DNA of 64,000 nt from Thermoanaerobaculia bacterium (GTDB lineage Bacteria > Acidobacteriota > Thermoanaerobaculia > Gp7-AA8). The stretch lies in NCBI GenBank assembly GCA_035569395.1, contig DATMNC010000002.1, forward strand, positions 75,593 to 139,592. The letters run 5' to 3'. The notes below the pieces were generated by a model. The model was not told the DNA's origin. It did no database searches and saw only the letters and a program-made list of their open reading frames with translations. The translations under genes and the position numbers were made by a program. Every line of letters begins with the position of its first letter. The stretch's first letter is position 1. Positions 269 to 30,073 of the stretch are shown piece by piece.

Positions 269-1042
269 TCACTTCCTCATCGCCCTCAACCTCTCATGCA
301 TCAACCGCAGGAGCTGCTCGCGGTCGAGGTTCTCGTGCAGCACGCCCTCGGTCGCGGCGGCGATCGAGCCATTCTCCTCCGAGATCACCAACACGAGGGC
401 ATCGCTGTCCTCGGAGAGGCCGAGGGCGGCGCGATGGCGCGTGCCGTGAGCCAGCTTCGGATCGGCGGACGTCGTCAGCGGCAGAAAGGCGCCGGCGGCG
501 ACGATGCGGTTGCCGCGGATGATGGCCGCACCGTCGTGGAGCGGTCCGCCGGGGACGAAGATGCTGATCAGCAGCTCCTCCGAGACGATGGCATCGACCG
601 GCTTGGCCGACTCCGCGTACATGCGCAGGCTCTGCGCGCGCTCGATGGCGATCAGCGCACCGATGCGATGCGCCGAAAGCACCGCCGTCGCGCCGGCGAT
701 GGCCTCGAACGGCACCGGTGAGGTGACGTTGGCCACGAGCGACAGCAACGGATTCGATGCCATCCGCGCCAGCGCGCGGCGGATCTCGGCCTGGAACAGC
801 ACGATCACCGCGAACGGCAGGTAGAAGAGGATCTCCCGCGAGATCGCCTCCAGCGCCGGCAGATCGAAGGCCCGGGCCACGAAGAACGAGCTCCCGAGGA
901 CCACCAGCCCGATCGACACCTGCATCGCCCGCGTCCCGCGGATCAGCGCCAGGATGCTGTAGATGACGAAGGCGACGATGGTGACGTCGATCGCATCGCG
1001 CCATGTGAACTGGAGGGAGAGAAGCCGGTCGTACCAGTTCAT
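269..1042 (-). CDS. cdaA: Diadenylate cyclase (c-di-AMP synthase) CdaA, membrane-anchored
   Basis: 257 aa; N-terminal hydrophobic helices; DAC-domain motifs DGAAIIRGNRIVAAGAFLPL and GTRHRAALGLSEDSDALVLVISEENGSI. Confidence 0.8.
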   Translation of the reverse strand: MNWYDRLLSLQFTWRDAIDVTIVAFVIYSILALIRGTRAMQVSIGLVVLGSSFFVARAFDLPALEAISREILFYLPFAVIVLFQAEIRRALARMASNPLLSLVANVTSPVPFEAIAGATAVLSAHRIGALIAIERAQSLRMYAESAKPVDAIVSEELLISIFVPGGPLHDGAAIIRGNRIVAAGAFLPLTTSADPKLAHGTRHRAALGLSEDSDALVLVISEENGSIAAATEGVLHENLDREQLLRLMHERLRAMRK

Positions 1043-1049
1043 ACGGCAC

Positions 1050-1115
1050 CTCCGGCGAGTTGTCTGCGGTTGCGCCGCGTTGTCTGCGCCTGCGGCGCGT
1101 TGTCTGCGGCGTGGC
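1050..1115. repeat. Three tandem copies of an ~18-bp unit (CGCGTTGTCTGCG core) in the cdaA-folP intergenic region
   Basis: gagttgtctgcggttgcgc / cgcgttgtctgcgcctgcggcg / cgttgtctgcggcgtgg read directly. Confidence 0.6.
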
Positions 1116-1236
1116 CGCGTGGCCGGTGGCTTGGCGTTCTCTGTATTACTAACTCTTGGTATCTGGGCGTGACGGGAAGATTTCGCAAAACGAGCCGTCG
1201 CCCCGAAAAGAGCTCGCGCCTTCCTAACGCCGAGAG

Positions 1237-1270
1237 CCCTTCTCCCCCAGCGCTTTTCAGCTGGGGGAGA
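1237..1270. other. Perfect 13-bp stem hairpin CTTCTCCCCCAGC-gcttttca-GCTGGGGGAGAAG
   Basis: Inverted repeat read directly; lies between folP 3' end and cdaA start on the minus strand; no U-tract on either strand. Confidence 0.5.
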
Positions 1271-1337
1271 AGGTGCCGAAGGCGGATGAGGGGGCGGTGC
1301 TTGCCATGTCCTCGACGGTATCCAGGTGCAGGCGCCG

Positions 1338-2120
1338 TCATCGCTTCGCCTCGATCGCCACGAGCACTTTCAGAAAATCGACCGTGGCACGCACATCGTG
1401 TACTCGTACGATCGCCGCACCGGCGCGTTGAGCGGCGGCGACGGCGGCCAGGGAGCCGAGGGCGCGGTCGGGGCCGGAGGGGCGTCCGGTCAGGTGGCCG
1501 ATGAAGGCCTTGCGCGAGGCGCCGATGACGACCGGGCCGAGCGCCGTCAGCTCGTGCGCCCGCGCCAGCAGCTCCAGGTTCTGGTCGAACGTCTTGGCGA
1601 AACCGATCCCGGGATCGATCAGGATCTTCCCTGGATCGACCCCGGCTTCGACGGCATCATCGATCATCGACGACAGCTCTCGGCTGACGTCGGTCACCAC
1701 ATCGTCGTAGACGGCGAATTGCTGCATCGTGGCCGGCTCGCCGCGCATGTGCATCAGGATCACCGGTACGCCGGTTCTGGCGACGACCGCGGCCATCCCC
1801 GCCGAGTAGCGCATCGCGCTCACATCATTGACCAGATCCGCCCCCGCCCCGATGGCCTCCTCGGCCACCTCCGCTTTGCGCGTGTCGATGGAGATCGTGA
1901 CGGCGCTCCGGCGGCGGATCTGTTCGATCACAGGCAGCACGCGGTCGATCTCGATTTGCGCCGCCAGAGGCTCCGCGCCGGGCCGTGTCGATTCCCCGCC
2001 AATGTCGATGATCGCCGCCCCATCCTCCTCCATCTGCAGCGCGGCATGGACGGCTTTCGATTGATCGAAGTGAACGCCGCCGTCGGAGAAGGAGTCGGGC
2101 GTGATGTTGAGGATGCCCAT
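1338..2120 (-). CDS. folP: Dihydropteroate synthase
   Basis: DHPS motifs GILNITPDSFSDGG, IDIGGESTRPGA, DPGIGFAKT; start placed at MGILN (Met30 of the six-frame ORF) because the upstream residues (HSTFNIEHST) are a translation of the TGTTGAA repeat. Confidence 0.85.
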   Translation of the reverse strand: MGILNITPDSFSDGGVHFDQSKAVHAALQMEEDGAAIIDIGGESTRPGAEPLAAQIEIDRVLPVIEQIRRRSAVTISIDTRKAEVAEEAIGAGADLVNDVSAMRYSAGMAAVVARTGVPVILMHMRGEPATMQQFAVYDDVVTDVSRELSSMIDDAVEAGVDPGKILIDPGIGFAKTFDQNLELLARAHELTALGPVVIGASRKAFIGHLTGRPSGPDRALGSLAAVAAAQRAGAAIVRVHDVRATVDFLKVLVAIEAKR

Positions 2121-2145
2121 CACCAATGGAGAGGCGTTCAAACCC

Positions 2146-2246
2146 AATGTTGAATGTTCAATGTTGAATGTTGAATGTTGAATGACCATGGCACACCGCC
2201 TCTTCATTCAACATTGAACATTGAACATTCAACATTCGACATTTCG
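2146..2246. repeat. Hairpin element of tandem TGTTGAA heptamers and their reverse complement (copy 1 of 2)
   Basis: aatgttgaatgttcaatgttgaatgttgaatgttgaatg ... cattcaacattgaacattgaacattcaacattc; same family at 29949-30073. Confidence 0.75.
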
Positions 2247-2261
2247 TCCCCTCTGAATGAT

Positions 2262-2345
2262 CGAGTGATTAGTAGATTAGTAGGTTCGTGGATCGGTGCG
2301 AAGTGCCCACTAATCTACTAATCCACTGATCACTTCCCCCTCACG
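2262..2345. repeat. Inverted-repeat element with GATTAGTA / CCACTGATCAC arms
   Basis: gtgattagtagattagtagg ... ccactaatctactaatccactgatcac; related element at 22290-22385. Confidence 0.55.
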
Positions 2346-3630
2346 AATCCCTCTCTCTCCGTATCCGCGCCCCCAGCGGATTCAGTCGTTCCTCGATCCG
2401 CTCGTACCCCCGGTCGATCTGATGAATGTTATGGATCACGCTCTCGCCTTTGGCACACAACGCCGCCAGCAGCAGCGCCATGCCGGCACGGATGTCGGGG
2501 CTGGAGATCTCGGCGCCGCTGAGCCGGTTGCCGCCGACGATGATGGCCCGGTGCGGATCGCAGAGGATGATGCGCGCTCCCATCTGGATCAGTTTGTCGG
2601 TGAAGAAGAGTCTCGATTCGAACATTTTCTCGAAGATCATCACCGTCCCCTCGGCCTGCGTGGCGATGACGATCATGATCGACAGCAGATCGGCGGGGAA
2701 GAGCGGCCACGGCCCGTCGTCGATCTTCGGCACCGCCGCCCCGATGTCGTAGCGGACGCGCAGTACCTGATCCTTCGGAACGCGGATATCCTGCCCTTCC
2801 ACCTTGATCTCGAGGCCGAGCTTTTCGAGCATGTAGCGCACCGCGTACATGTGATGCGGCACGGCGTCCTCGATCACCAGCTCGCTGCGCGTGACCGCGG
2901 CCAGGCCGATGTAGGAGCCGACTTCGATGTGGTCGCTGGGGATGTGAAACTCGCCGCCGTGCAGCGATTCGACGCCGCGGATGCGCAGCGAGTTCGTGGC
3001 GATCCCTTCGATCTCCGCGCCGAGGAGGTTGAGAAAGCGGCAGAGATCCTGAACGTGCGGCTCGGCGGCGGCGTTGTAAATCACCGTATCCCCCTCGGCG
3101 AGCACCGCGGCCATGATCGCGTTCTCGGTGGCCGTCACCGACGCCTCATCGAGGAACATATTCGTTCCGCGCAGCGCGCGCACCGACATCCGGTACTCCT
3201 GCGCCGAAACCTCGATCTGCGCGCCGAGCGCCTCCAGCGCCAGCAGGTGCGTGTCGACGCGCCGCCGGCCGATGGCGTCGCCGCCCGGCTTGGCGATGTT
3301 GGCCGCCCCGCAGCGCGCCAGAAGCGGCCCTGCCAGCAGGATCGACGCCCGGATCTTGCGCGAAAGATCGGGATCAGGATTGGACTTGCAGTCGCCCTTG
3401 GCGTGAATACGGACGACGTTCGGATCGAGCTTCTCGACCGACGCCCCGATCCCCTCCATGATCTGAAGCATGACCCGGACGTCCTGTATATCCGGCAGGT
3501 TGCGCAGAACGATGGCCTCGTCCGTGAGCAGGCACGCCGCCAGGATCGGCAGCGCCGCGTTCTTGTTCCCCCCCGGCCGGATGCGCCCTTCCAGACGGCG
3601 TCCGCCTTCGACGATGAATCGTTCCATCAT
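2341..3630 (-). CDS. murA: UDP-N-acetylglucosamine 1-carboxyvinyltransferase MurA (Asp at the catalytic Cys position)
   Basis: Colinear with MurA: GGNKNAALPILAA, AKPGGDAIGRRRVDTH (E. coli PGGCTIGARPVDLH), IHQIDRGYERIEERLNPLGARI; start at MMERF, since the first 38 aa of the ORF translate the upstream repeat. Confidence 0.85.
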   Translation of the reverse strand: MMERFIVEGGRRLEGRIRPGGNKNAALPILAACLLTDEAIVLRNLPDIQDVRVMLQIMEGIGASVEKLDPNVVRIHAKGDCKSNPDPDLSRKIRASILLAGPLLARCGAANIAKPGGDAIGRRRVDTHLLALEALGAQIEVSAQEYRMSVRALRGTNMFLDEASVTATENAIMAAVLAEGDTVIYNAAAEPHVQDLCRFLNLLGAEIEGIATNSLRIRGVESLHGGEFHIPSDHIEVGSYIGLAAVTRSELVIEDAVPHHMYAVRYMLEKLGLEIKVEGQDIRVPKDQVLRVRYDIGAAVPKIDDGPWPLFPADLLSIMIVIATQAEGTVMIFEKMFESRLFFTDKLIQMGARIILCDPHRAIIVGGNRLSGAEISSPDIRAGMALLLAALCAKGESVIHNIHQIDRGYERIEERLNPLGARIRRERDS

Positions 3631-3649
3631 GTGGCGGGGGATTGTATCC

Positions 3650-3851
3650 GCGGTTACGCGGTCTCGCGGTTGCGGGGTCGCGCGGTGGGTTGCTGGGTTG
3701 CAGAATTGCGGTTGCGGGGTGGCAAACAACCAGGAGCTGACCAAGTGTTAACAACCGAGCAACCTTGCAACCCAGCAACCACGCAACCCGATCGAACAAA
3801 CACCGCGAGACCGCGCAACCGCGAGACCCCGCGACCTCAATCCGCGCTACC
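3650..3851. repeat. Composite inverted-repeat element of the GGTCTCGC/GGTTGCTG family
   Basis: 3655-3740 is the reverse complement of 3760-3850 (cgcggtctcgcggttgcgg...gggttgctgggttgcag vs ctgcaacccagcaacc...accgcgagaccgcgcaacc). Confidence 0.7.
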
Positions 3852-4697
3852 ATAACCTCCGTGATCGTCGCCCCTCTCTCGTCCGGCAGCGCGGGCAATT
3901 CCTACTACTTCGAGAGCGACGGGACCTCCATCCTGGTCGATGCCGGACTGGGGCCGCGCGAGACGCGCAAACGGCTGGAACAGGTCGGCAAGACCATCGA
4001 GACCGTGCAGGCCATCGTCATCACCCACGAGCATTACGACCACATCCGCGGCGCCAGCGCCATCGGGCGCAAGTACGGGATCCCGATCTACCTGACCCAG
4101 GGGACGCTCGACAACAGCCGCATCGACCGCGAGGTGATCAAGACCGTTGTCTTTCTTAACGATTCGACGTTCACCATCGGTGAGTTGAACGTCCACGCCC
4201 GCCGCACGCTGCACGATGCCGCCGATCCGGCCTGTTTCGTGATCGAGGCCCGCGACGGCACCCGCGTCGGCGTCGCCAGCGACCTCGGGCACGCCGACGC
4301 GCCGGTGATCCGCCACCTCTCCGACTGCGACGGCCTTTTCTTCGAGGCCAACCACGATCTGGACATGCTGCGCCTGGGCAGCTACCCCTGGTCGCTCAAG
4401 CGCCGGATCATGTCCCGCTTCGGCCACCTCTCGAACGACGATTCGATGTCGGCCGTGCAGCGGATGATCGGCGCCGACCTCAAGAACCTCTGTCTGATCC
4501 ACCTCTCCGAGCGCAACAACCACGAGTCGATCGTCCGCGATATGGCCGGCCGCCTGTTGTCGCGCCTCGGCGTGACGAATCAACTCGAGCTATCGATCGC
4601 CAAACAGTTCGAAGCCACCGGCGTCTACGAGATCTCCCGCCGCCGCCCCACCCGCCCCCGCCTCCCGGCGCTGAATACGCAGATGGCGCTGTTTTAG
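3765..4697 (+). CDS. MBL-fold metallo-hydrolase (YycJ/WalJ-like)
   Basis: ILVDAGLG, ITHEHYDHIRG, GHLSNDDS motifs; the first ~30 codons of the ORF lie in the repeat element, so the true start is probably near 3861 (ITSVIVAPLSSGSAGN). Confidence 0.7.
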   Translation: MQPSNHATRSNKHRETAQPRDPATSIRATITSVIVAPLSSGSAGNSYYFESDGTSILVDAGLGPRETRKRLEQVGKTIETVQAIVITHEHYDHIRGASAIGRKYGIPIYLTQGTLDNSRIDREVIKTVVFLNDSTFTIGELNVHARRTLHDAADPACFVIEARDGTRVGVASDLGHADAPVIRHLSDCDGLFFEANHDLDMLRLGSYPWSLKRRIMSRFGHLSNDDSMSAVQRMIGADLKNLCLIHLSERNNHESIVRDMAGRLLSRLGVTNQLELSIAKQFEATGVYEISRRRPTRPRLPALNTQMALF

Positions 4698-5266
4698 GAG
4701 GGCGGTGCCGACGAAGATTTGCCAAGATCGGGAGCAACGGTCCTCAACTGCGTGAGGACGTTCTGCCCCGCATAGAAGAGCGGCCAGAGGGTGTCCCGTT
4801 TCTCGCCGAGATCGTGCTCCCGCCGTTCTGCCACGTAGACCGCCTCGCGCGTCCGAACATAGAAGCGGACGTGCGCGGGCGGCGGATAGGGGAAGTCGGA
4901 CGTCGCAGCCATCTGATTGAGATAACCGGCCGATTCCCGGACGAAGGCAATTGCCGCCCGCCGGACATTCTCGTGACGGATGCCGCCGATGATGCCTCCG
5001 CCGCTGCTGATGTACAGGCTGGCATCTCCCGTCAAGGCGGCCATTACGCTGGCGGTGGCGTTCGGGAACCCGATGTCCATGACCACGACCAGCGGTTCGT
5101 TCGCCTCTCCCGTACCGCCACCTGCGGGAACATCGCACAGCACGCCCCGCCGGAGCTCTTTCATCACGTTCCCATCGCCGCCACTCTTCCGCCGCGTCCG
5201 CGCCAGACCGGCAACGACGATGGCGACGACGCCAAGCGCGACAAGCAGCAAAAGGGACGTGCTCAT
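4694..5266 (-). CDS. Hypothetical membrane-anchored protein
   Basis: 190 aa, N-terminal TM helix (LLLLVALGVVAIVVAGLA), no family recognised. Confidence 0.45.
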   Translation of the reverse strand: MSTSLLLLVALGVVAIVVAGLARTRRKSGGDGNVMKELRRGVLCDVPAGGGTGEANEPLVVVMDIGFPNATASVMAALTGDASLYISSGGGIIGGIRHENVRRAAIAFVRESAGYLNQMAATSDFPYPPPAHVRFYVRTREAVYVAERREHDLGEKRDTLWPLFYAGQNVLTQLRTVAPDLGKSSSAPPS

Positions 5267-5550
5267 CCGCCGATGATACTAGGCCGGCACGGCCGGCAGC
5301 GTTGGTTGCCCAAGGCTCCGCCAGCAGTGGCGCAAGACGCTTCTGCCGCGCAGGCTCCCAGGCGGGGCTGACTTCCTCCTCGGGCTGATGTCTACTCCAC
5401 CGACACAGGCTGTAGGCCCCTCCAGACGGGCTCTCTGGACGTCCGCGGAGTGGAATCCTGCGCGTCATTTTCTGGTGTTCAGGACACGCTGTGGCGGTAA
5501 AGTGAGAATCTGGCAGCTCTGGTGTCTGGTTCGAAGGAGTCGAGGAACTC

Positions 5551-5841
5551 ATGACGGTATCCGACATCGTTCGAGAGAAGCGCGAGGAGGTCCTCGCCAT
5601 CGCACGCAAACATGGAGCGTCCAACGTGCGCGTTTTCGGCTCCGTCGCGCGAGGGGAGGCAGCCGAGCAGAGCGACATTGACCTGCTGGTCGATCTCGCT
5701 GCCGGCCGCAGCCTGTTCGACCTCGGCGCATTGGTGATGGAGCTCAATGAATCGATTGGGCAGCATGTGGACGTCGTTACCGATGGCGGTATCAGGAGCC
5801 GAATTCGCGATCGTATCGTCGCGGAAGCCATCCCGCTGTGA
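5551..5841 (+). CDS. Minimal nucleotidyltransferase (MNT) antitoxin of a HEPN/MNT pair
   Basis: GSVARGEAAEQSDIDLLVD (GS-x10-DxD nucleotidyltransferase motif); 4-bp overlap with the downstream HEPN gene. Confidence 0.8.
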   Translation: MTVSDIVREKREEVLAIARKHGASNVRVFGSVARGEAAEQSDIDLLVDLAAGRSLFDLGALVMELNESIGQHVDVVTDGGIRSRIRDRIVAEAIPL

Positions 5842-6110
5842 GAGATCCGGTCGAACGAATCCGCGACATGGTCGAAGCGATCGATCGCATCGAGCGTTAT
5901 GCCGAGCGGGGGAGGGAGGCGTTCGATCGCGATGAACTTATCCAGAGCTGGTTCATCCGCCATCTCCAGATTCTCGGCGAAGCAGCCCGCGCTCTGCCCG
6001 ATGACATCCGTCAGAAGGCCCCGGATATCGAATGGAAGAAGAGCATGCGGCATGTGCTCGTGCACGACTACTTCGGTATCGATCGAAACGTCGTGTGTGG
6101 GCGACGGTGA
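5838..6110 (+). CDS. HEPN-domain (DUF86, HepT-like) toxin
   Basis: R-x4-HxY motif in RHVLVHDY; 90 aa; ATGA overlap with the MNT gene. Confidence 0.75.
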   Translation: MRDPVERIRDMVEAIDRIERYAERGREAFDRDELIQSWFIRHLQILGEAARALPDDIRQKAPDIEWKKSMRHVLVHDYFGIDRNVVCGRR

Positions 6111-6179
6111 AAAGCGAGTTGGGGCCACTTAAGGCTTCTCTCGCGATTCTTCTCGTGAACCTTTCCGCTGAACCGCCAT

Positions 6180-6206
6180 CTTGAGATCACAAATTGTGAT
6201 CTCAAG
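6180..6206. promoter_or_regulatory. 27-bp perfect palindrome CTTGAGATCACAA-A-TTGTGATCTCAAG, candidate operator
   Basis: Read directly; 62 bp upstream of the dprA-like start codon. Confidence 0.4.
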
Positions 6207-6268
6207 ATCGCAGCCATCGCACGTCGGCGGCAACCACAGCCGGTCCGTTCTACGATCGGTGGATCGCA

Positions 6269-7060
6269 TTGATTCACGACTCCTTGAGTCTTCGCTCAGC
6301 AATCACCGCCTACCTCGAGTCACTCGAGCGTTGTAAACTCTTCCTACGCATGGCGACCGAGAACGCGCGAGTGATCCCGACCGAGATCGTGACACTCGAC
6401 CCTGCCGACGTGATGGGCGGCCTCAACGAATATGAGAGACGCCACGCTCCGGAGCAACTATTCGCTTGCGGCGAAGTTGCGTTGCTACGTGCGTCTGCGC
6501 GCGTCGCGGTCGTCGGATCGCGAAAGGCATCGCTGCCTGGTCGAAAGCGGGTGGCGAGACTCGTCAGCGCATTGGTCGAGCGCGATGTTGTGATCGTCAG
6601 CGGCCTCGCGGCCGGTATCGACACCGTAGCTCACGAAGAAACGCTCAGACGAGGCGGACGCACGATCGCAGTTCTTGGAACCCCGATCGACGAAGGGCAT
6701 CCCGCGGCGAACGCGCCGCTTCAGGCGCGGCTGATGAAGAGTCACCTCGTCGTGACGCAGTTTCCTGTTGGTCACCCCACGCTCCGTTCGAACTTCCCGC
6801 GGCGCAACCGCACCATGGCCCTTCTCTGCCACGCCTCCGTGATCGTCGAAGCTGGTGAATCGAGCGGGACGCTGTCCCAAGGGTGGGAAGCGCTCCGGCT
6901 GAACCGGCCACTGTTTATTCTCAAGTCGGTGTTCGAGAACGAAGAGCTGACCTGGCCCGAAGAGATGCGGGAGTACGGAGCGCAGGTGCTCGAAGATGTG
7001 GAGCAGATCCTCCACGTCCTTCCGATCGGACTTCCACCGCTGGAAGAAGTTGCTTTCTAA
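6269..7060 (+). CDS. dprA: DprA/Smf-family DNA-processing protein (Rossmann-fold core, no obvious C-terminal winged helix)
   Basis: VAVVGSRKAS, VSGLAAGIDTVAHEETL, TIAVLGTPID, FPRRNRTMALL, VIVEAGESSGTL match the DprA signature. Confidence 0.65.
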   Translation: MIHDSLSLRSAITAYLESLERCKLFLRMATENARVIPTEIVTLDPADVMGGLNEYERRHAPEQLFACGEVALLRASARVAVVGSRKASLPGRKRVARLVSALVERDVVIVSGLAAGIDTVAHEETLRRGGRTIAVLGTPIDEGHPAANAPLQARLMKSHLVVTQFPVGHPTLRSNFPRRNRTMALLCHASVIVEAGESSGTLSQGWEALRLNRPLFILKSVFENEELTWPEEMREYGAQVLEDVEQILHVLPIGLPPLEEVAF

Positions 7061-7094
7061 GTACACGTTCCCGGAAGAGGGGTGCCCCGTCGGC

Positions 7095-7325
7095 GGCTGA
7101 CCGATTTGAGCCGGCGAAGCCGGCGTAAGGTCCGTCCCCCGGCTTCAGTCGGGGGAAACGCGGGCATCCATTTTTCCGAGCCCGCTTCAGCGGGCGATAG
7201 AGAGGGACACCGCTCTTCTGTCGCCCGCCCCGGCTCAAAGCCGGGGGCCACGGACCTTAAGCCAGCGTCGCTGGCGCAGGCGGTGCCTCCGAAGTCGCCT
7301 TCAGAAAATGCAGGGGGAAGGCGAC
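7095..7325. other. Cluster of at least 6 GC-rich stem-loops (REP-like cluster or structured RNA candidate)
   Basis: GCCGGC-gaag-CCGGC; CCCCCG-gcttcagt-CGGGGG; GCCCGC-ttca-GCGGGC; CCCCGGC-tcaaa-GCCGGGG; GCCAGC-gtc-GCTGGC; GTCGCCTTC-15nt-GAAGGCGAC. Confidence 0.45.
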
Positions 7326-7339
7326 TAAATGATTTTGGC

Positions 7340-7660
7340 AACATCAGAACACTATATTATTCTGCAAGAGCGAAAAATCATTCCGTCGGAACGAATTTTG
7401 ATTCCGCGGGAGCGTTCCGGCGTTCTGACGGAAACGAATTTCGTTCCGATGGATCAAAATTCGTTTCCGACGGAGCCGCCGAGCGCTCCGCGAGAGTCAA
7501 AATTCGTTCTGACAGAATAATATAATGTTCTTTCAGAATGAATTTTGGTTCTCGCAGAATAGTATAATGCTCTGTCAGAACAGATTTTGGTTCCCGCAGA
7601 ATCGTATGATGCTCTGCAAGAACAGAGTCTGCTTCCTGACGAGGACTGTCCCGCCACGTT
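7340..7660. repeat. AT-rich (~40% GC) array: four ~42-bp tandem units each with a TATAAT-like hexamer, plus four ~21-bp near-palindromic units (CGGAAACGAATTTCGTTCCG-like)
   Basis: Units at 7345-7386, 7518-7559, 7560-7601, 7602-7645 (cagaat.gtataatg.tct.tcagaa.aga.tttggtt.ccg) and at 7387-7408, 7424-7447, 7448-7470, 7494-7515. Confidence 0.7.
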
Positions 7661-7679
7661 AGATACGAAGAGGGCGCCC

Positions 7680-8138
7680 TCAATACGGCCACGCGAGCGC
7701 CGACGCAAACCCGGGGATGACCGTCCCCAGCCACTCCGACTGCGCCGACACCAGATCGCGCAGCTCCGCCGCCAGCACCGCGTCGACGGACTTCCCCTCC
7801 CGCGCCGCCAGCTTTTCCAGCGCCACGACCTCCATCCGCGGAATGCGCACCTCCAGATCGCAGAGCCGGAGCAGTTCCGGAATCGCCTCCGCCACATCGG
7901 TGCCGAGCGCCTCTTCGATCGCCTCCTGCTCCCAGAACCCCATCGCGAACGACACCAGCTCCGCCCACGACAGCACGACGCCGTCCCGCGTCGCCTCCCC
8001 CTCCAACTCCCCAACCTCCATCCACCCCTCGACATCCTCGACACTCATCCCGATCGCTCCCGCCGCCGCGGCGGGCGTGTAGGTGGGGTGGGGGTGGAGG
8101 AAGAGGTCGCGGATCAGGGTGGGGGTGGTTGTCGTCAT
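7680..8138 (-). CDS. Hypothetical acidic protein, divergent from an XRE regulator; its 5' end is duplicated at 9196-9290
   Basis: 152 aa ORF; N-terminus MTTTTPTLIRDLFLHP repeated in a second copy; no family recognised. Confidence 0.5.
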   Translation of the reverse strand: MTTTTPTLIRDLFLHPHPTYTPAAAAGAIGMSVEDVEGWMEVGELEGEATRDGVVLSWAELVSFAMGFWEQEAIEEALGTDVAEAIPELLRLCDLEVRIPRMEVVALEKLAAREGKSVDAVLAAELRDLVSAQSEWLGTVIPGFASALAWPY

Positions 8139-8200
8139 CGCAGACTCCTTTGCGTGGCTTTCGAAGAAAGATTCGACGAGAATGCTGATCCCAACGCTGG

Positions 8201-8494
8201 TTGGAAGACTTTATTCCAACGGCAGTGTGGAATGCAAGGGTGCAGGAAGCCCAGCTCTTCGGCCGCCGTCTCCGCGAGCTCCGCAAGGCAAGCGAGCTGA
8301 CTCAGGAAGCGCTTGCCGAGGCCGCCGACCTCTCGGGCAACTACATCAGCGATCTGGAGCTGGGTCTGAAGGTGCCGAGTCTGACGATCCTTGTCCGTCT
8401 CTCCGAGGCGCTCGACATCGGTACCCCGGAGTTGCTCGCGGACTTCACGCGGAGTGCCGTGAAGAGGTTGAAGGTGCGTCAGCACCGGGTGTGA
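8201..8494 (+). CDS. XRE-family helix-turn-helix transcriptional regulator (paralog 1)
   Basis: LFGRRLRELRKASELTQEALAEAADLSGNYISDLELG HTH signature; paralog of 9301..9585. Confidence 0.75.
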   Translation: MEDFIPTAVWNARVQEAQLFGRRLRELRKASELTQEALAEAADLSGNYISDLELGLKVPSLTILVRLSEALDIGTPELLADFTRSAVKRLKVRQHRV

Positions 8495-8640
8495 CGTGGT
8501 CCTGGAACACCGCCGGACAATCCGGGTGTTATACTTTCGACATCTGCTCCCCGTTGGATCAGCCCTCTGGGCCTCTGGCGGGGTTTTGTATTTTGGGGGA
8601 ATGTTGGACCTTCGCTCACACGGCAGGAAGAGGACAATGC

Positions 8641-9213
8641 ATGCCTGCTGAGCCGGCCAACAAGCGCGCTGTCGCCTTCATCGATGGGCAGAATCTCTTC
8701 TATGCGGTCAAGTATGCGTTTGGCTACTCCTACCCCAACTACGATATCCGGCGCTGACCGCGGCGGTTTTCGGCCGCCGAGGGTGCCTGGTATCCGGGAT
8801 TCGTTTCTACACCGGAATCCCCAAGTGTCGATGACGATCCCTTCTGGAACCACTTCTGGAACGCGAAGCTAGCGGTTATGGGCACGAGGGGCGTCGTCAC
8901 GTTCGCCCGCAATCTCCGATACCGCAATCAGACCGTCCCGCTATCCGACGGCACGAGCACGACCGTTCTGGTAGGCCAGGAAAAGGGCATCGATGTCCGG
9001 TTGGCGCTTGACGTTGTACGGCTCGCCCGTGAAGACGCATATGACGTGGCTGTCCTCTTCAGCCAGGATCAGGATCTTTCCGAGGTCGCCGATGAGGTCA
9101 GGGCCATCTCGATCGCTCAACAGCGATGGATCAAGGTGGCCTGCGCCTATCCAGTCAGCCCTGCCTATACCAATTCGCGAGGGGTGAACAAGACCGATTG
9201 GGCGGGGGTGTAG
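8641..9213 (+). pseudogene. NYN/LabA-like (PIN-like) nuclease gene interrupted by an in-frame TGA at 8755-8757
   Basis: N-terminus KRAVAFIDGQNLFYAVKYAF... then stop, then the same frame continues ...GQEKGIDVRLALDVVRLAREDAYDVAVLFSQDQDL (NYN core); 8083..8757 and 8878..9213 are the same reading frame. Confidence 0.6.
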
Positions 9214-9290
9214 GAAGAGGTCGCGGATCAGGGTGGGGGTGGTTGTCATCGCGTCTCCTTTGCGTGTCTTCTCAGAACGAGCGAATATCA
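9196..9290. repeat. Near-identical duplicate of 8083-8170 (start codon, first 13 codons and upstream region of the 7680..8138 gene)
   Basis: aggaagaggtcgcggatcagggtgggggtggttgtc...cat and tcctttgcgtg shared by both copies; the six-frame ORF 8941..9291 (-) is an artefact carrying the duplicated N-terminus. Confidence 0.7.
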
Positions 9291-9300
9291 ACTATCGACG

Positions 9301-9585
9301 ATGGAGTCTACATCAACGATCGTTGAAGCTCAACCCGACATGGCCGTCGAAGCAGAGATCTTCGGAAAGCGCCTGCGCCAGCTCCGCCTCGCCGCCGGCT
9401 GGACCCAGGAGCAGTTCGCCGAAGCCGCGGGAATCACGACGACGTATACGAGCGATCTCGAACGGGGGACGAAGGTGCCGAGTCTCACGATCGTCTTGCG
9501 GATCAGCAAGGCCTTCAAGATGCCGATCGCTGAGTTGCTCCGCGATTTCACGGTGGAGGGGGTGCGGCGGTTGAGGTTGGACTAG
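9301..9585 (+). CDS. XRE-family helix-turn-helix transcriptional regulator (paralog 2)
   Basis: IFGKRLRQLRLAAGWTQEQFAEAAGITTTYTSDLERG; colinear with the 8201..8494 product. Confidence 0.75.
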   Translation: MESTSTIVEAQPDMAVEAEIFGKRLRQLRLAAGWTQEQFAEAAGITTTYTSDLERGTKVPSLTIVLRISKAFKMPIAELLRDFTVEGVRRLRLD

Positions 9586-9654
9586 TGCCGCCTGCGACAC
9601 CCAGGTATGGGACTGTGACCGCTGTCAATGGTAATCTGACGGAAGGGAGGGAAG

Positions 9655-10845
9655 ATGCGTCTTCTGGACCTTTGGCAGTCAGATCCGTCAATCGAAAATA
9701 AGCGACTTGAACAAATAATCGCCTTTGCGGGTGAGGGCCGCTTCGCTGAAAACAACGATACCTCACGCGAGTTTCGCCAGTACCTCAGCCGTGTCGGCCC
9801 AGAGAGGTTGAAATCCTACTGCGCGGAATGTCTGTCGGGAGATAAATTTGCGGCCGCCGCATTTGCGCTGCAGGATGTAATCAACGAGATCGGTAGGCGC
9901 CTCGGATTCTCGGTACAACCAGGTAGGTATCGCGGAGTAACAGGGGAGATTGGCTACGACGGTCTTTGGACGTTGCAACGCGGACACGTCTTGGTCGTGG
10001 AGGTCAAGACCTCTGACGCTTACCGCGTGTCCCTTAATACTGTCGCAGGCTATCGGAAGCGCCTGATCGAGAACGAATCAATACCGAGGGACGATTCGTC
10101 GTGCCTGATCATTGTCGGAAGACAGGACACCGGTGGCCTCGAGGCAGAGGTGCGCGGATCGCGACACGCCTGGGAGATGAGGCTTCTCAGCATTGACGCG
10201 TTGCTTAAGTTGCTTGACCTTCGGCAGCGGCTTGAAGATCCCGGTGTGGTGCGAAGAGTTGGGGAGATTCTCGTTCCACATGAGTTCACACGCGTTGACG
10301 ACATTGTGGATATTGTCTTCGAAACCGCAGAGGACACATTGGTGGAGCAGCCGACGAATGCATCGGCCGCCGCAGAAATTTTGGATGTCGAAGAAGAGGA
10401 TGATGAATCCCCTGGTCCAAGAATGGACATCATGGCGGTCGGTCGCGACTCTGCAGCCAGAGTGGCGAAAAAGGTCAATGCGCCGCTGATCCAACGGTCA
10501 CGTGGCACGTTCTCTTCGGCGGATGAGTCCTTGAGAGTCGTCTGCGCGTACTCGAGAACATATGGAGCCGCGCCAGAGGGCGGCTTCTGGTTCGCCTTTC
10601 ATCCTTACCAAAAAGACTATCTGGACAAGGCAAAGCAGGGTTTCGTAGCTCTCACGTGCGGTGATGCGGCAACGATTCTCCTGATTCCGATTCTGGACTT
10701 CTCGGATTGGCTAACTGGTATGCACGAGACGATTTCGCCAGATCGCCGCTACTGGCATGTGCGTATCAGAAGGGTCAGCGGTCGGTTCACCATGTATCGC
10801 CGGAAGGGTCAAGAAAGAATCGAGCTGACAAAGTACCTGGTGTGA
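9655..10845 (+). CDS. Predicted PD-(D/E)xK-fold nuclease-like protein with an uncharacterised C-terminal domain (possible restriction/defence enzyme)
   Basis: GYDGLWTLQRGHVLVVEVKTSD gives a D...E-x-K arrangement; 396 aa; local GC clearly lower than the flanks. Confidence 0.5.
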   Translation: MRLLDLWQSDPSIENKRLEQIIAFAGEGRFAENNDTSREFRQYLSRVGPERLKSYCAECLSGDKFAAAAFALQDVINEIGRRLGFSVQPGRYRGVTGEIGYDGLWTLQRGHVLVVEVKTSDAYRVSLNTVAGYRKRLIENESIPRDDSSCLIIVGRQDTGGLEAEVRGSRHAWEMRLLSIDALLKLLDLRQRLEDPGVVRRVGEILVPHEFTRVDDIVDIVFETAEDTLVEQPTNASAAAEILDVEEEDDESPGPRMDIMAVGRDSAARVAKKVNAPLIQRSRGTFSSADESLRVVCAYSRTYGAAPEGGFWFAFHPYQKDYLDKAKQGFVALTCGDAATILLIPILDFSDWLTGMHETISPDRRYWHVRIRRVSGRFTMYRRKGQERIELTKYLV

Positions 10846-10880
10846 TGCCGAGGGTGGAGTGATGCAGCCGTAAAGCTGGA

Positions 10881-11582
10881 CTAGCGCACCATCCGCATCG
10901 GCAGCCCGACTCTGTCCATCGGCGGATCGACCGGCATCGTTTGCGAGTCCCCGTTCACGATCCGTTGCGCCGTCCACAGCGCGGCGAAGGCGTCGGCGAT
11001 GTCGTCGTTTGAGGCGTGTCTCGGTTTTATCTGATTGCGCGCGGTTTCGAACGCCAGCGGGCCGAAGTGGCGGGCGATGAGGTTGCGGCGGATGGCGTGT
11101 CCCTCTGGGGTTTGCTTGGGAGGGATGATCGGGGCTCCGGACCAGGTGCTGAATGTCAGCTCGGGGTGCACCTCGAACACTCGGCCGCGGAGGGCGGTGT
11201 CTGTCTGCAGCGCATCGTCGACTTCGCGGATCTTCGGGTAGATCGCCCACGCCTGTTGCGGGATTCCCTTCTTCTGCGCTGCCATCGACGCCGCGTTCGC
11301 CTCGGCGTACGTCGACGCGGACAACGCGCCCCGGATCGGGGAGGGGAAGACGCTGGTCCCTCGTTTTGGTCCGAGGTGACGGCGGGCGTCGAGATCGCAC
11401 TGCCGAGGACCGTGGTCTGTGAGGCCGATCGGGATGTCGATGGCAATCACAGCGGCGTCGAGGGCGTTCGTCAGGTCGGAGAAGGTGAGGAAGACGTGCG
11501 CTGTGATGTTGTGGTTTTCGGTATGTTCGACGACGGCAATCCAACCGGATGGGCAACCATCCACTCCTGCGATATTGGGCAT
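10881..11582 (-). CDS. DUF429-family protein (predicted RNase H-like fold)
   Basis: N-terminus IAGVDGCPSGWIAVV typical of DUF429; 233 aa. Confidence 0.6.
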   Translation of the reverse strand: MPNIAGVDGCPSGWIAVVEHTENHNITAHVFLTFSDLTNALDAAVIAIDIPIGLTDHGPRQCDLDARRHLGPKRGTSVFPSPIRGALSASTYAEANAASMAAQKKGIPQQAWAIYPKIREVDDALQTDTALRGRVFEVHPELTFSTWSGAPIIPPKQTPEGHAIRRNLIARHFGPLAFETARNQIKPRHASNDDIADAFAALWTAQRIVNGDSQTMPVDPPMDRVGLPMRMVR

Positions 11583-11630
11583 GAAGGGATGATATGCGGT
11601 TAATTCGCCGTTGACTGCGCAACGGACCGG

Positions 11631-11957
11631 GTGTACGAAGGGCTGTACTCACGACTCGAACATCAGATTCAGAACCAGACTGACCGAGGAGCGCTCTTGC
11701 CAACGATCAGTATCTTCTACGGTGTCGTGATTCAGATGTTCGCAGGGGACCATCCACCGCCGCACTTTCATGTCATGTATGCGGAACATGAAGCGCTGAT
11801 TGACCTGCGGCATCTTCGATTGATGCGGGGCTCGCTGCCGCGCCGGGCCATGGCCCTTGTGCTGGAATGGGCTTCGGAGCATCGTGATGAGCTGATGGAG
11901 GATTGGGAGCTATGTCAACGAATGCAGCCGCCCAAGCGGATCGCGCCGCTGAAGTAG
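11631..11957 (+). CDS. DUF4160-family protein
   Basis: ISIFYGVVIQMFAGDHPPPHFHVMYAEHEA matches the DUF4160 signature. Confidence 0.65.
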   Translation: MYEGLYSRLEHQIQNQTDRGALLPTISIFYGVVIQMFAGDHPPPHFHVMYAEHEALIDLRHLRLMRGSLPRRAMALVLEWASEHRDELMEDWELCQRMQPPKRIAPLK

Positions 11958-12247
11958 TGCCCGCGGTCGAGCCGCGCGCGCCCTGGCGCGTGCGGGAGAT
12001 TCGCGTCGTGGAACATGGTGTGTTGAACGTTCGCTTCGTCGACGACACGGAAGGGACGTTGGATATGCGCGCGTTGCTCGACAGCGACAAGGTGATCGGG
12101 ACCGTCTTCGAGCCTTTGCGCGATGCGTCGCGATTCGCCCAGGCGGCGATCCATCTCGGGACCGTGGAATGGCCCGGCGAAATCGATCTTGCTCCTGATG
12201 CCATGTACGACGAGATCCGTGCGCATGGGGCTTGGGTTGTCGGTTGA
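11912..12247 (+). CDS. DUF2442-family protein (partner of DUF4160)
   Basis: PWRVREIRVVEHGVLNVRFVDDTEG; start uncertain (ATG 11912 with a GGGAG just upstream, or GTG 11957 overlapping the upstream TAG). Confidence 0.6.
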   Translation: MSTNAAAQADRAAEVVPAVEPRAPWRVREIRVVEHGVLNVRFVDDTEGTLDMRALLDSDKVIGTVFEPLRDASRFAQAAIHLGTVEWPGEIDLAPDAMYDEIRAHGAWVVG

Positions 12248-12368
12248 GCAGTGCTGGCGGACCTGAACGAGGCAATGCTGGGCAACACTGGGGGTGGCGA
12301 GACCGGAGCGAGACGCCAGCGCTCCGACTGCGCGCCTTCGGCGCGTCTCGACAGCTCGCTGGCGCTCC

Positions 12369-19123: not shown

Positions 19124-19470
19124 CTGCGGTTGCGCGGTTGCGCAGTCTCGGGGTTGGGGGCGCAAGGTTGCAATGTACGACGCCGCGATAGCGGCTCAAG
19201 AAGGTAGCCAGGGGTGCGAGCGTTTTTTGCGAGCACCCCTGGAACCCGGTGCGATCTGAAGTCGTGCCGCGTCAGCGGCACTGGACGAAGTCCGATTGCT
19301 CAAGTGCCGCTGACGCGGCACCAAACTATGCATCTCGTTACCAGGGGTGCTCGCAAAAAACGCTCGCACCCCTGGCTACCGTCTTGTCGCCGCTAACGCG
19401 GCAAGAATCCCCAGCAACCCAGCAACCACACACCGCGAGACCGCGCAACCCCGAGACCCCGCAACCCCGT
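19124..19470. repeat. ~350-bp composite of nested inverted repeats: outer GGTTGCGC/GGTCTCG arms enclosing two copies of the CCAGGGGTGC...GCACCCCTGG hairpin and a GCCGCGTCAGCGGCAC palindrome
   Basis: Read directly; fills the space between two convergent gene ends; six-frame ORFs 19214..19396 and 19249..19533 are artefacts. Confidence 0.65.
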
Positions 19471-28720: not shown

Positions 28721-28815
28721 CGCGGTTGCGAAGTCTCGAGGTTGCGCGGTCTCGCGGTGCTGCGCCGAGCGGCAAACCGCGCGACTGCGCGACCCCGAGA
28801 CCGCGCAACCGGGGG
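28721..28815. repeat. Inverted-repeat element of the GGTCTCGC/GGTTGCGC family inside the nuo operon (nuoC|nuoD junction)
   Basis: gcggttgcgaagtctcgaggttgcgcggtctcgcggtg mirrored by caaaccgcgcgactgcgcgaccccgagaccgcgcaaccg. Confidence 0.65.
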
Positions 28816-28827
28816 GAGGTCGGCGGC

Positions 28828-29943
28828 GTGTTTGACGTTCACGAAATGGAGGTCAACTTCGGTCCCCAGCATCCGTCGACGCACGGGGTGCTGCGGGTGA
28901 TTCTGAAGATTGACGGCGAACGCATCATCGACGCCAAGCCGATCATCGGCTACCTCCATCGCGGTACCGAAAAGCTGTTCGAGGCCATGTCCTATCCGAT
29001 GTGCATCCCGCATACGGACCGGATGGATTACGTCGCCTCGGCCACAAACAACCTCGGCTTCGTGGAGACGGTCGAGAAGCTGATGGGGATCACCAAGCAG
29101 ATTCCGAAGCGCGCGCAGCTCATGCGCGTGATGCTCAGCGAGCTGCAGCGGATCTCATCGCATCTTCTCTGGCTGGCCACGCACGCCATCGATATCGGCG
29201 CGATGACGCCGTTCTTCTACTGCTTCCGCGAGCGCGAGCAGGTCCTCGATCTTTTCGAGGAGTACTGCGGGGCGCGCCTGACGCTGAACTGCATGCGCAT
29301 CGGCGGCATGCCGGACGATCTTCCTCCGGACTGGCTCGATGGCGTCGAGAAGTTCGTCGACAAGTTCGAGGATGCCGTCGACGAGTACGAGTCGCTGCTG
29401 ACGAATAACCGCATCTGGAAAAAGCGCACCGTCGGCATCGGTGTCATCTCACCGGAGGATGCAATCGATTGGGGCATCACCGGCCCGCCACTGCGCGGCT
29501 CGGGCGTCGAATGGGATCTTCGGCGGGCGCAGCCTTACGAGTGCTATCCGGAGCTGAAGTTCGAGATCCCGATCGGCAAGAACGGCGATACCTACGACCG
29601 CTACCTGGTCCGGATGGAAGAGATGCGGCAGTCGAACTGGATCCTCAAACAGTGCATTCCGCTGGTGAAGGCGACGCCGGCAGGCGACATCAAGGCGAAA
29701 ATCTCGCGTGTGGTGCGGCCACCCGAGGGCGAGGTCTATCACTCCATCGAATCGCCGAAAGGGGAGCTGGGCTACTACATCGTCTCCGACGGCAAATCGC
29801 AAAGCGCCTATCGCTGCCACGTGCGCCCGCCGTCATTCGTCAACCTGCAGGCGCTGCCGGCGATGGCGAAGGGACACCTTGTTTCCGATTTGGTGGCTCT
29901 GATTGGGACCATTGATATCGTCTTGGGCGAGGTGGATCGGTGA
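28828..29943 (+). CDS. nuoD: NADH-quinone oxidoreductase subunit D
   Basis: NFGPQHPSTHGVLRV, RIGGM; start at GTG 28828 (GGAGGT 7 nt upstream) or ATG 28846; earlier part of the six-frame ORF translates the repeat. Confidence 0.9.
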   Translation: MFDVHEMEVNFGPQHPSTHGVLRVILKIDGERIIDAKPIIGYLHRGTEKLFEAMSYPMCIPHTDRMDYVASATNNLGFVETVEKLMGITKQIPKRAQLMRVMLSELQRISSHLLWLATHAIDIGAMTPFFYCFREREQVLDLFEEYCGARLTLNCMRIGGMPDDLPPDWLDGVEKFVDKFEDAVDEYESLLTNNRIWKKRTVGIGVISPEDAIDWGITGPPLRGSGVEWDLRRAQPYECYPELKFEIPIGKNGDTYDRYLVRMEEMRQSNWILKQCIPLVKATPAGDIKAKISRVVRPPEGEVYHSIESPKGELGYYIVSDGKSQSAYRCHVRPPSFVNLQALPAMAKGHLVSDLVALIGTIDIVLGEVDR

Positions 29944-29948
29944 TTCAG

Positions 29949-30073
29949 AAAAGCGAAATGTTGAATGTTGAATGTTCAATGTTGAATGTTGAATGGAACC
30001 GCTGGAACCACCGCGTGGCGAAGCCCTCATTCAACATTGAACATTCAACGTTGAACATTCAACATTCGCTTTT
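29949..30073. repeat. TGTTGAA heptamer hairpin element (copy 2), filling the nuoD|nuoH junction where nuoEFG normally lie
   Basis: aaaagcgaaatgttgaatgttgaatgttcaatgttgaatgttgaatg ... cattcaacattgaacattcaacgttgaacattcaacattcgcttttg. Confidence 0.75.

Follow-up and report, generated by a model that had tools for sequence, protein, structure and literature searches.

In the genome of a soil Thermoanaerobaculia bacterium (Acidobacteriota; GCA_035569395.1, contig DATMNC010000002.1), a slot of variable gene content lies between two conserved core blocks, at approximately 4705-12321 of the 64-kb stretch of DNA analysed here (hereafter, the window). The region is a partly decayed hotspot of defence and toxin-antitoxin (TA) genes, of a known general kind. 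Three toxins (HepT, ShosT and an NYN-domain nuclease) have been broken or lost, and the content of the slot is turned over between close relatives. We consider it likely that the slot is a mosaic of independent addiction and defence modules set between the core blocks, with decay of toxins and turnover of cargo genes. Two of these modules start with a "head", in which a regulator gene (XRE) is paired with a divergent gene for an acidic 152-aa protein (h152), or with a remnant of it, and is followed by a nuclease gene as cargo. A sequence-only reading had proposed an accessory island with defence or addiction content at 5300-11600. Synteny and the TA and defence families found here confirm this content, with borders that lie further out.

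Borders, contents and composition of the slot

The slot is flanked by folP, murA and an MBL hydrolase gene on the left and by GDPD and yjbQ on the right, both sides being conserved in synteny with Thermoanaerobaculia relatives. Conserved synteny of the whole segment, which would argue against acquisition, was not found: the folP-murA-MBL block (window 270-4700) is kept in 27 related loci (L001-L027; loci from other genomes carry such numbers throughout), and homology stops at the MBL stop codon. L081 (GCA_037024985.1), the closest relative found, has ~92% nucleotide identity to the window up to 4704 and again from 12322 (GDPD, yjbQ). Homology to the window ends at 4697 in L137 and reaches 5065 in L094, and GDPD/yjbQ and MBL/murA are common to these two loci and L089.

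Between MBL and GDPD, five close relatives (L081, L094, L089, L137 and L152) hold five different contents. The slot of L081 starts with PIN_10 and DUF433/HTH_66 genes, a DUF1016 fragment, a palindrome that is also present in the window, and a DprA-like gene followed by a PRTase_2 gene. It continues with a degenerate copy of the h152 3' end, an AT-rich array (96% identical to that of the window), an h152 orthologue (h162) and a different XRE gene, and ends with an HsdM_N fragment and a DUF1016/YhcG nuclease gene. L094 has the array, h152 and the second regulator gene of the window (XRE2), with a helix-turn-helix (HTH) + M78 peptidase protein as cargo; it lacks MNT/HepT, the DprA-like gene, the first regulator with its cargo (XRE1/NYN) and the 396-aa nuclease gene. 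XRE2 is directly followed by DhiT/DhiA in L089, and MNT is present without HepT in L137. L152 contains an intact HepT gene, h152 in three copies or fragments, and the array adjoining a hairpin cluster. Several nested slots within the region vary independently between relatives. The combination of conserved flanks and differing contents therefore puts the slot at ~4705-12321, wider than 5300-11600, and the gene for a 190-aa protein and a DUF4160/DUF2442 pair consequently belong inside it. This comparison indicates that the slot is an accessory and recently reshuffled region.

The window as a whole has 62.5% GC, with a standard deviation (SD) of 2.5% among 1-kb windows, where the sequence-only reading had assumed a background of ~67%. 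The same reading had put the 7340-7660 segment at ~40% GC, and the actual value is 45.8%. Mean GC over 5300-11600 is 59.8% versus 62.8% for the remainder; a difference of only ~1 SD is therefore a weak signal. GC at third codon positions (GC3) separates the island from its flanks much better, ranging from 0.84 to 0.90 in the flank genes (folP-like, murA, MBL hydrolase, GDPD, yjbQ) and from 0.61 to 0.81 in the island genes, with the host-like h152 (0.90) as the sole exception. The gene at 9655-10845 is the coding stretch with the lowest GC (55.1%), and its GC3 of 0.61 is also the lowest.

As had been noted from the sequence alone, the island has no integrase or tRNA gene. A Pfam scan of the island open reading frames (ORFs) gave no integrase or recombinase domain, a tRNA/tmRNA scan of all 64 kb gave no hit, and neither integrase nor transposase was present in the window locus or the related loci examined. 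Flanking direct repeats, which the same reading had suggested looking for, are absent at the slot borders at lengths of 10 bp or more. The marks of a genomic island integrated by site-specific recombination are thus missing. The viral-contig and plasmid collections contained no homologue, Rfam returned no family at gathering score over the window, and a scan for sigma-70 promoters and terminators gave counts close to the shuffled expectation. Proteins were annotated by Pfam, NCBIfam, PADLOC and PHROGs profile scans (Table 1).

Table 1. Features in and around the variable slot, in window coordinates.
Feature	Position	Strand	Details
190-aa hypothetical protein	4694..5266	-	Within variable region; GC3 0.77; absent from L081 and L137, partial in L094
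MntA-like nucleotidyltransferase (antitoxin), intact	5551..5841	+	Pfam NTP_transf_2 1.6e-11, 44.9 bits (cut-off 21); PADLOC PDC-S09 5.9e-36
HepT (HEPN RNase toxin) pseudogene	5838..6184	+	Pfam HepT-like 2.3e-17, 63.3 bits (cut-off 23.5), profile 2-103 of 120
Perfect 31-bp palindrome	6178..6208		ATCTTGAGATCACAA-A-TTGTGATCTCAAGAT; 15-bp arms 6178-6192 and 6194-6208
ShosA-like DprA-fold (Rossmann/SLOG) protein, 239 aa	6341..7060	+	Pfam DNA_processg_A 2.3e-50; PADLOC ShosA PDLC03961 1.2e-69
GC-rich hairpin cluster, 245 bp	7071..7315		In the place of the ShosT gene; fold energy -163 kcal/mol
AT-rich tandem array	7316..7679		~14 units of 21 bp, 42-bp super-unit; 45.8% GC over 7340-7660
h152, 152-aa acidic protein	7680..8138	-	Predicted BldC/Xis-fold N-domain and RHH-like C-domain; GC3 0.90
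Type-A intergenic region	8139-8200		Inverted repeat CCAAC-N4-GTTGG; same type in seven other loci
XRE1, Cro/C1-type HTH, divergent from h152	8201..8494	+	HTH_31 1.2e-14; PADLOC Control_protein 9.4e-12
NYN-domain nuclease pseudogene	8640..9213	+	NYN 9.9e-08 on 8878-9213 piece; cargo of XRE1
Remnant, 5' end of second h152 gene	9103..9250	-	tblastn, residues 3-53 at 43%
Type-B intergenic region	9251-9300		Upstream of XRE2
XRE2, Cro/C1-type regulator	9301..9585	+	HTH_31 2.5e-15; PADLOC Control_protein 8.9e-12
396-aa PD-(D/E)xK nuclease-fold protein (fold predicted), intact	9655..10845	+	C-terminal beta-rich domain; cargo of XRE2
DUF429 protein (RNase H-like fold family), intact	10881..11582	-	Pfam DUF429 2.6e-57, profile 1-212 of 214
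DUF4160/DUF2442 pair	11631..12247	+	DhiT-like toxin 11631-11957, DhiA-like partner 11903-12247; PHROG matches

Toxin decay in the TA and nuclease modules

All of the parts that the sequence-only reading had named exist, including the short DprA-like protein, the stem-loop cluster, the AT-rich repeat array and the DUF429 RNase H-like protein. Some of its labels need correction. Both families of the proposed HEPN/MNT pair are present, with HepT frameshifted. The palindrome is perfect, and its label as an operator was dropped, as it lies at gene 3' ends in other loci. Of two proposed XRE-plus-nuclease cassettes, both regulators (1e-14 to 1e-15) and the fold of the 396-aa nuclease stand, while the first nuclease (NYN) is a pseudogene.

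Judging by its sequence, the MntA-HepT pair is a type VII TA module with a frameshifted toxin. The MNT and HepT genes share a 4-nt overlap, the MntA-like protein scores 36.4 bits against the NCBIfam model MntA_antitoxin (under the cut-off of 60), and an RHVLVH (Rx4H) motif is found in HepT. Compared with the intact copy in L152, the window HepT gene lacks 6 nt, a deletion that stays in frame, and has 2 inserted nt (gtcgtgTGtggg) that shift the frame. The reading frame is broken near 6093, which truncates HepT to 90 aa with loss of the last ~27 residues, and the original C-terminus (VWATVKSELGPLKASL...) is still readable in another frame up to 6184.

The original HepT stop codon is overlapped by the palindrome, both in the window and in L152. 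This element has no U-tract. Of the 82 h152 loci, 15 have its 23-nt core in identical or nearly identical form, and in 12 of these the core is located 61-80 bp 3' of the h152 stop, where there is no DprA gene; in L081, the palindrome is 100% conserved and follows the DUF1016 fragment. We rejected the palindrome as an operator of the DprA-like gene because the same element follows h152 in those 12 loci and overlaps the original HepT stop. Since it always lies at gene 3' ends, a bidirectional 3'-end hairpin is the simplest reading, and we infer this role for it. The h152 subgroups without the TTGAGATCACA palindrome have 10-bp inverted repeats (CGCAGATGTA / TACATCTGCG) at the same place after the stop (L092 6490-6560; L112 and L126), which is consistent with a 3'-end hairpin. 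A search of viral contigs for the exact palindrome gave one match, on an unrelated AT-rich contig, that we judged to be due to chance.

ShosTA is a type IV TA and anti-phage system, whose ShosA protein has SAM and Rossmann domains, binds single-stranded DNA (ssDNA), promotes recombination and indirectly counteracts the PRTase toxin (PMC11961720). The N-terminal SAM domain comprises residues 1-94 in Escherichia coli ShosA (PMC11961720). The DprA-like protein of the window matches the PADLOC ShosA profile over positions 95-289 of 303, i.e., the Rossmann domain alone. A genuine DprA, the mediator of natural transformation, was rejected, as the protein scores below the equivalog cut-offs (TIGR00732 dprA, 154.4 bits vs 191.15; PRK10736, 122.8 vs 495) and has only the Rossmann domain, not the full SAM-Rossmann-(DML1) architecture. 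In L081-L084 and L085-L088, the ShosA-like homologue is followed by a PRTase_2 gene with PADLOC ShosT matches of 2e-17 and 8e-17. In L085-L088, the intact pair stands among unrelated housekeeping genes, with no array, h152 or XRE nearby, in keeping with a self-contained ShosTA-like module. The window has neither a PRTase ORF nor any remnant of ShosT. Homology to L081 breaks off at 7070 and restarts at 7316, and L081 holds ShosT and an h152 3' fragment between these points. The gene at 6341..7060 is thus recognisable as a putative orphan ShosA-like antitoxin gene, from a pair that lost its PRTase toxin.

The hairpin cluster that stands in place of ShosT folds with z-scores of -7.8 on the plus strand and -6.8 on the minus strand. 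L152 has a copy of 84% identity joined to the same array. The junction of ShosT loss is thereby also present in L152, so it is not an assembly artefact. Beyond this orthologous copy, we found no further hairpin cluster in the window or in 172 loci, and accordingly rejected it as a repeated element of the MITE (miniature inverted-repeat transposable element) or REP (repetitive extragenic palindrome) kind. Rfam searches at gathering and permissive thresholds gave nothing credible for the hairpin cluster, the array or the palindrome.

Three-frame translation of the NYN gene revealed a TGA stop in frame at 8755-8757 and a local frame shift over ~8755-8826. The 3' end of this gene passes into the remnant of the second h152 gene, and there is no intact NYN homologue among the loci compared.

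The h152/XRE heads, their cargo and the adjoining arrays

Every h152 context examined has a divergent XRE gene and variable cargo 3' of it, and these modules sit at many different chromosomal sites. XRE1 and XRE2 are 54.5% identical (blastp). The h152-XRE intergenic regions belong to at least four discrete types that match the type of XRE, and the window holds two of them. Among 40 cargo ORFs surveyed, we identified Mrr_cat, NA-iREase1, HNH_2, DUF1016/PDC-S02, OLD-like AAA_21/AAA_15, PIN, HTH + M78, AlkZ-like and AbiU2 proteins, with Mrr_cat, HNH and PD-(D/E)xK enzymes dominating. Each XRE may act like the controller protein of a restriction system, binding a type-specific operator within the divergent promoter and so repressing the cargo behind it. 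The two heads of the window would then each drive a different nuclease, XRE1 the NYN protein (now a pseudogene) and XRE2 the PD-(D/E)xK enzyme. A third XRE-type ORF (42349-42561, minus strand; 34% over 71 aa to the L081 XRE) is located far outside the island, with no h152 homologue near it.

The 396-aa protein encoded behind XRE2 has 933 homologues, none with a Pfam domain. It has no sequence-profile match and nothing significant among PDB sequences. The best Foldseek match to its AlphaFold model (pTM 0.73) is Nt.BspD6I (5.9e-3, probability 1.0), with PspGI, VRR_NUC, EcoO109I and NucS as further hits, all at weak E-values. Residues D102, E116 and K118 are invariant in 30 aligned homologues. 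Together with the matches to restriction endonuclease folds, these residues point to a PD-(D/E)xK nuclease-fold protein, and the XRE2-linked enzyme is probably active. Its gene is absent from L094, L089 and L081. The beta-rich part of the protein (residues ~260-396) had low-probability Foldseek matches to YTH (m6A-reader) domains; if real, this match would suggest a modification-dependent (type IV-like) nuclease.

Truncated h152 copies occur in 16 loci and invariably share the strand of the full copy. In the window, a direct repeat of 51 nt (8086-8136 vs 9200-9250, 94%) shows that the start of h152 recurs beside XRE2. This XRE2-side sequence (9200-9250) is contiguous with a full h152 gene in L094, L089, L104 and L137, so XRE1 + NYN (8160-9200) is an insertion or duplication relative to these genomes. 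The positions of the fragments suggest that the repeated h152/XRE heads recombine, in a homologous or illegitimate manner, and that cargo is swapped in this way. Swapping of this kind would account for the truncated h152 genes at module junctions and would need no integrase. In L159 (189-5438), three h152 fragments and one full copy lie within 5.3 kb in one orientation, as do three copies or fragments within 2.7 kb in L152 (1-2563). These pile-ups suggest repeated module replacement at the same site.

The h152 protein has 608 homologue clusters, none of which has a Pfam domain. Among the 120 matches listed, every named one is annotated as Thermoanaerobaculia or Acidobacteriota. Searches of viral contigs and of the plasmid collection yielded no relatives, and a PDB sequence search gave nothing significant. 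In the AF2 model (mean pLDDT 77.5), the N-domain has a pLDDT of ~90 and resembles BldC (6ama; TMt 0.75, probability 1.0), RdfS, RacA and the Xis protein of mycobacteriophage Pukovnik in Foldseek searches. Pfam matches are weak (RHH_1 at 0.045, HTH_17 and MerR), and the C-terminal segment VRIPRMEVVALEKLAAREGKSVD looks by eye like the ribbon-helix-helix (RHH) of Arc (VRIPR...GKSVD). The net charge of h152 is about -16 to -17 and its pI is 4.2-4.3. With such strong acidity several roles are possible: h152 could bind DNA via its RHH part, serve as an anti-repressor, or inhibit DNA-binding cargo in a generic way.

The AT-rich array beside h152 is the only such array within the 64 kb and lies between two convergent gene 3' ends. 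Its unit consists of a TTC-N5-GAA-type palindrome and an A/T spacer that alternates between AATTTTG and TATAAT. Tandem Repeats Finder (TRF) reports a period of 21/42 with 83% matches and a score of 147, and the autocorrelation is 0.69 at lag 42. Besides the copy in L081, the array is found at 93.5% identity in L152 and at 78% in L094, and it has no match in the plasmid or phage collections. TRF (period of at least 9 bp) detected an array up to 900 bp 3' of the h152 stop in 34 of the 82 h152 loci, and in about 30 of these the period was 21-22 bp or a multiple thereof. Autocorrelation showed strong periodicity in 20 of 77 regions 3' of h152 (26%), all at lags of 21, 22, 42, 43 or 64. The corresponding controls were 10/349 tiles from the same loci, 8/340 from other Thermoanaerobaculia loci and 4/828 from other phyla, and arrays with lags of 21, 22, 42 or 43 were not found in any of the 828 tiles. 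Unit sequences differ wholly between loci. That the period stays at two helical turns whatever the sequence suggests a DNA-level constraint, which could be phased binding or curvature. For the window array, the most likely role is that of a curved-DNA or phased protein-binding element at a module edge.

RHH proteins that bind centromeres or operators, such as Arc, ParR and omega, polymerise on phased direct repeats. The phased arrays lie beside the gene of h152, with its RHH-like segment; the related contexts contain neither a Rep gene nor one for a partition NTPase, and no motif is common to the arrays. BldC/Xis-type proteins also polymerise on helically phased direct repeats (PMC5859096, PMC7498355): a BldC site of 22 bp takes two protomers (PMC5859096), and the sites of recombination directionality factors are spaced by one helical turn (PMC7498355). 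A role of the array as a decoy for a promoter operator was rejected, as the h152-XRE intergenic regions of 20 loci contain no copies of the units. We rejected the array as a type III TA or CRISPR-like element because of its architecture, and VIPR repeat-RNA systems, which use YNNGG pentanucleotide repeats (bioRxiv 10.64898/2026.04.26.720920), are not comparable.

A second, unrelated array with a 43-bp period (GACTCGTGGAGGCCACCTGGTGATGTTTTAGCGTGCATGAGTC, 7-13 copies) is found in L094 (5629-6081), L093 (4211-4746), L101 and L156. The palindrome is on one side of it and an h152 3' fragment on the other, with a window-type TTC array following, so arrays can be stacked. Arrays with a period of 21, 42 or 43 bp and no h152 nearby occur in L004 (14289-14703), L023 (122-315), L129 (7313-7889), L162 (3163-3461) and L132 (3722-3897). 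The last of these is inside an ORF and encodes the 7-residue repeat DKRFDAV, so some arrays of such period are coding.

Other repeats of the window lie outside the slot. AT-rich intergenic inverted heptamer arrays (TGTTGAA/TGTTCAA, ~6 copies per arm) are located at 2146-2243, 3' of murA, and, ~80% identical and 28 kb away, at 29937-30072; the first of them causes a dip to 51% GC at 2001-2400. Short GC-rich interspersed repeats (GCGGTTGCGGGGTCGCG.../...CAACCCAGCAACCACGCAACC) are found at 3640-3860, 30-220, 19410-19469 and 28724-28814. Between murA and MBL, this repeat family makes up a large inverted repeat, and copies are also present in relatives, e.g., L081.

The remaining genes of the slot lie at its two ends. 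The 190-aa protein has no match in Pfam, NCBIfam or PADLOC. The DUF429 gene is kept in L094 and absent in L081 and L089. The DUF4160 protein matches the NCBIfam model toxin_DhiT at 2.1e-20 and 73.1 bits, under the cut-off of 100. Orthologues of this pair, which resembles the type II TA system DhiT/DhiA, carry PF13711 and PF10387 in L089, and the pair is absent in L081.

Competing explanations and comparison with known systems

Several observations weigh against our explanation. The bulk GC of the slot is just ~1 SD under the window mean, and the pseudogene calls come from one metagenome-assembled sequence, with the ShosT-loss junction also seen in L152. The recombination model is drawn from fragment positions, and control of the cargo by XRE is likewise a reading of the sequence. 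Fifteen array families have no common motif, the k-mers most widely shared among them (CATCG, in 6 families) are no commoner than in shuffled controls, and array family is independent of XRE type. Arrays in 21-bp phase also occur away from h152 in this lineage, one of them as a coding heptad repeat. Finally, h152 is strongly acidic, and the residues through which it would contact DNA do not vary, while the array sequences are unrelated.

For the arrays, it is possible, if doubtful, that they are non-functional, fast-evolving intergenic minisatellites of this lineage that accumulate in recombination-prone regions. Such minisatellites would fit the shifts in copy number between close relatives (7.5-15 copies of the same unit in L090, L105, L108 and L109; 7.6-12.6 in L093-L156), the lack of a common motif and of unit copies in promoters, and the similar arrays without h152 in L004, L023, L129 and L162. 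They fit less well with the enrichment right after full or truncated h152 3' ends (26% vs 1-3% of control tiles), with the absence of these lags from the tiles of other phyla, or with the narrow period (21-22 bp or multiples thereof) found in sequences that are otherwise unrelated, which speaks for a helix-level constraint. We regard it as unlikely that h152/XRE and the 21-bp arrays form a previously undescribed, lineage-specific defence-nuclease platform, in which the acidic BldC/Xis-fold and RHH protein would make up a conserved head with a set of "heteroimmune" XRE/operator types, this head would control the toxic cargo and serve as the handle for its integrase-free swapping, and the arrays would insulate as filament or curved DNA or arise from the exchange. 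A new mechanism for the head and arrays cannot be claimed.

Less probable still is a decayed prophage, integrative and conjugative element or integrative and mobilizable element without integrase, with h152 as a relic excisionase, the arrays as relic arm-type, iteron or centromere repeats, and the duplicated h152 3' ends as att-like scars. The predicted Xis/RdfS/BldC fold of the h152 N-domain would suit this origin, as would the helically phased direct repeats bound by recombination directionality factors (PMC7498355, PMC5859096), the h152 3' fragments that flank arrays in L081 and L094, and the lower GC3 of the cargo. On the other hand, the window and related loci lack the integrase, transposase, tRNA and border repeats of such elements, no family member turned up in the viral-contig and plasmid collections, and h152 itself is strongly acidic with a host-like GC3. 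Nested slots that vary independently, and modules at many chromosomal sites, also argue against a single mobile element.

The sequence-only reading had raised the possibility that the parts belong together, as their combination matched no named system that it recognised. In its full form, this would be a novel multi-gene defence system, in which, for example, repeat-derived nucleic acid is handled by the DprA-fold protein and cleaved by XRE-gated nucleases. The array and hairpin cluster do adjoin the DprA-like gene in the window, at a junction shared with L152, and ShosA-type proteins bind ssDNA and promote recombination (PMC11961720). Nevertheless, relatives carry the parts separately: the array and h152/XRE2 are present in L094 without the DprA-like gene or the 396-aa nuclease, the DprA-like gene of L081 has a normal ShosT partner, and the pair in L085-L088 does without arrays, h152 and XRE. 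Moreover, three putative effectors are inactivated in the window, and most parts do match named systems, namely ShosA (PADLOC 1.2e-69), MntA/HepT, DhiT and controller-protein-like XRE. The lack of co-occurrence in relatives largely refutes the single system, which we consider very improbable. An ordinary chromosome with chance variation in composition has next to no probability and is already refuted by the synteny comparison, as a GC deviation of ~1 SD, equalled at 35-50 kb of the window, is set against synteny that breaks exactly at the flank genes, five alternative contents, the drop in GC3 and the TA/defence-type gene content.

As a defence and TA island, the region is ordinary, and as a mosaic of modules, it documents island turnover in an almost unstudied soil phylum. 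Toxins go first, with HepT, ShosT and NYN broken or lost while antitoxins or regulators stay, and cargo is apparently exchanged behind a conserved regulator pair without integrase. Both the h152 family (no annotation, ~600 clusters), linked to XRE and nuclease cargo, and the 396-aa nuclease family (~930 clusters, no Pfam domain) are worth follow-up, as are the arrays, with their constant two-turn period and free sequence. If the arrays are true protein-binding insulators or recombination products, they would represent a new type of cis element tied to bacterial immune loci.

The modules can be compared with known systems one by one. As in type VII MntA-HepT systems, the window has overlapping MNT and HepT genes with Pfam matches above threshold and the Rx4H motif; unlike in these systems, HepT is frameshifted and both proteins fall under NCBIfam equivalog cut-offs. 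The 239-aa protein shares with ShosTA the Rossmann/DprA domain of ShosA, and its orthologues elsewhere adjoin a ShosT-matching PRTase_2 gene, but ShosT is missing from the window, the protein is without the SAM domain that E. coli ShosA has, and complete pairs in the relatives have the antitoxin gene 5' of the toxin gene. In type III TA loci (ToxIN-like), a tandem repeat RNA antitoxin adjoins the toxin gene. The window array, whose sequence is locus-specific, likewise adjoins toxin and defence genes. However, there is no ToxN/AbiQ-like toxin or Rfam match, the arrays are located 3' of h152 and not upstream of a toxin gene, and they are fixed at 21-22 bp across unrelated sequences.

The N-domain of h152 superposes on BldC, RdfS, RacA and Xis, and arrays with a two-turn period adjoin its gene. 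The protein differs from BldC/Xis/RdfS-type and RHH proteins in its strong acidity, invariant candidate contact residues and lack of a partner NTPase or recombinase. Restriction endonucleases controlled by C proteins resemble the heads in that a small Cro/C1-type HTH gene lies directly upstream of the nuclease gene, and both XREs match Control_protein. In contrast to restriction-modification systems of this kind, no methyltransferase ORF is found in 4705-12321, XRE is always paired with a divergent acidic h152, and the same head carries unrelated cargo across genomes. Hotspots of defence islands are known in which variable cargo lies between conserved flanks, e.g., the P2/P4-type hotspots of enterobacteria. 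Although the slot is not in a recognisable prophage or satellite, has no integrase, and has the h152/XRE pair rather than phage genes as its conserved internal element, it shares with those hotspots its fixed borders, the quick replacement of defence and TA cargo in close relatives, and the arrangement of systems side by side.

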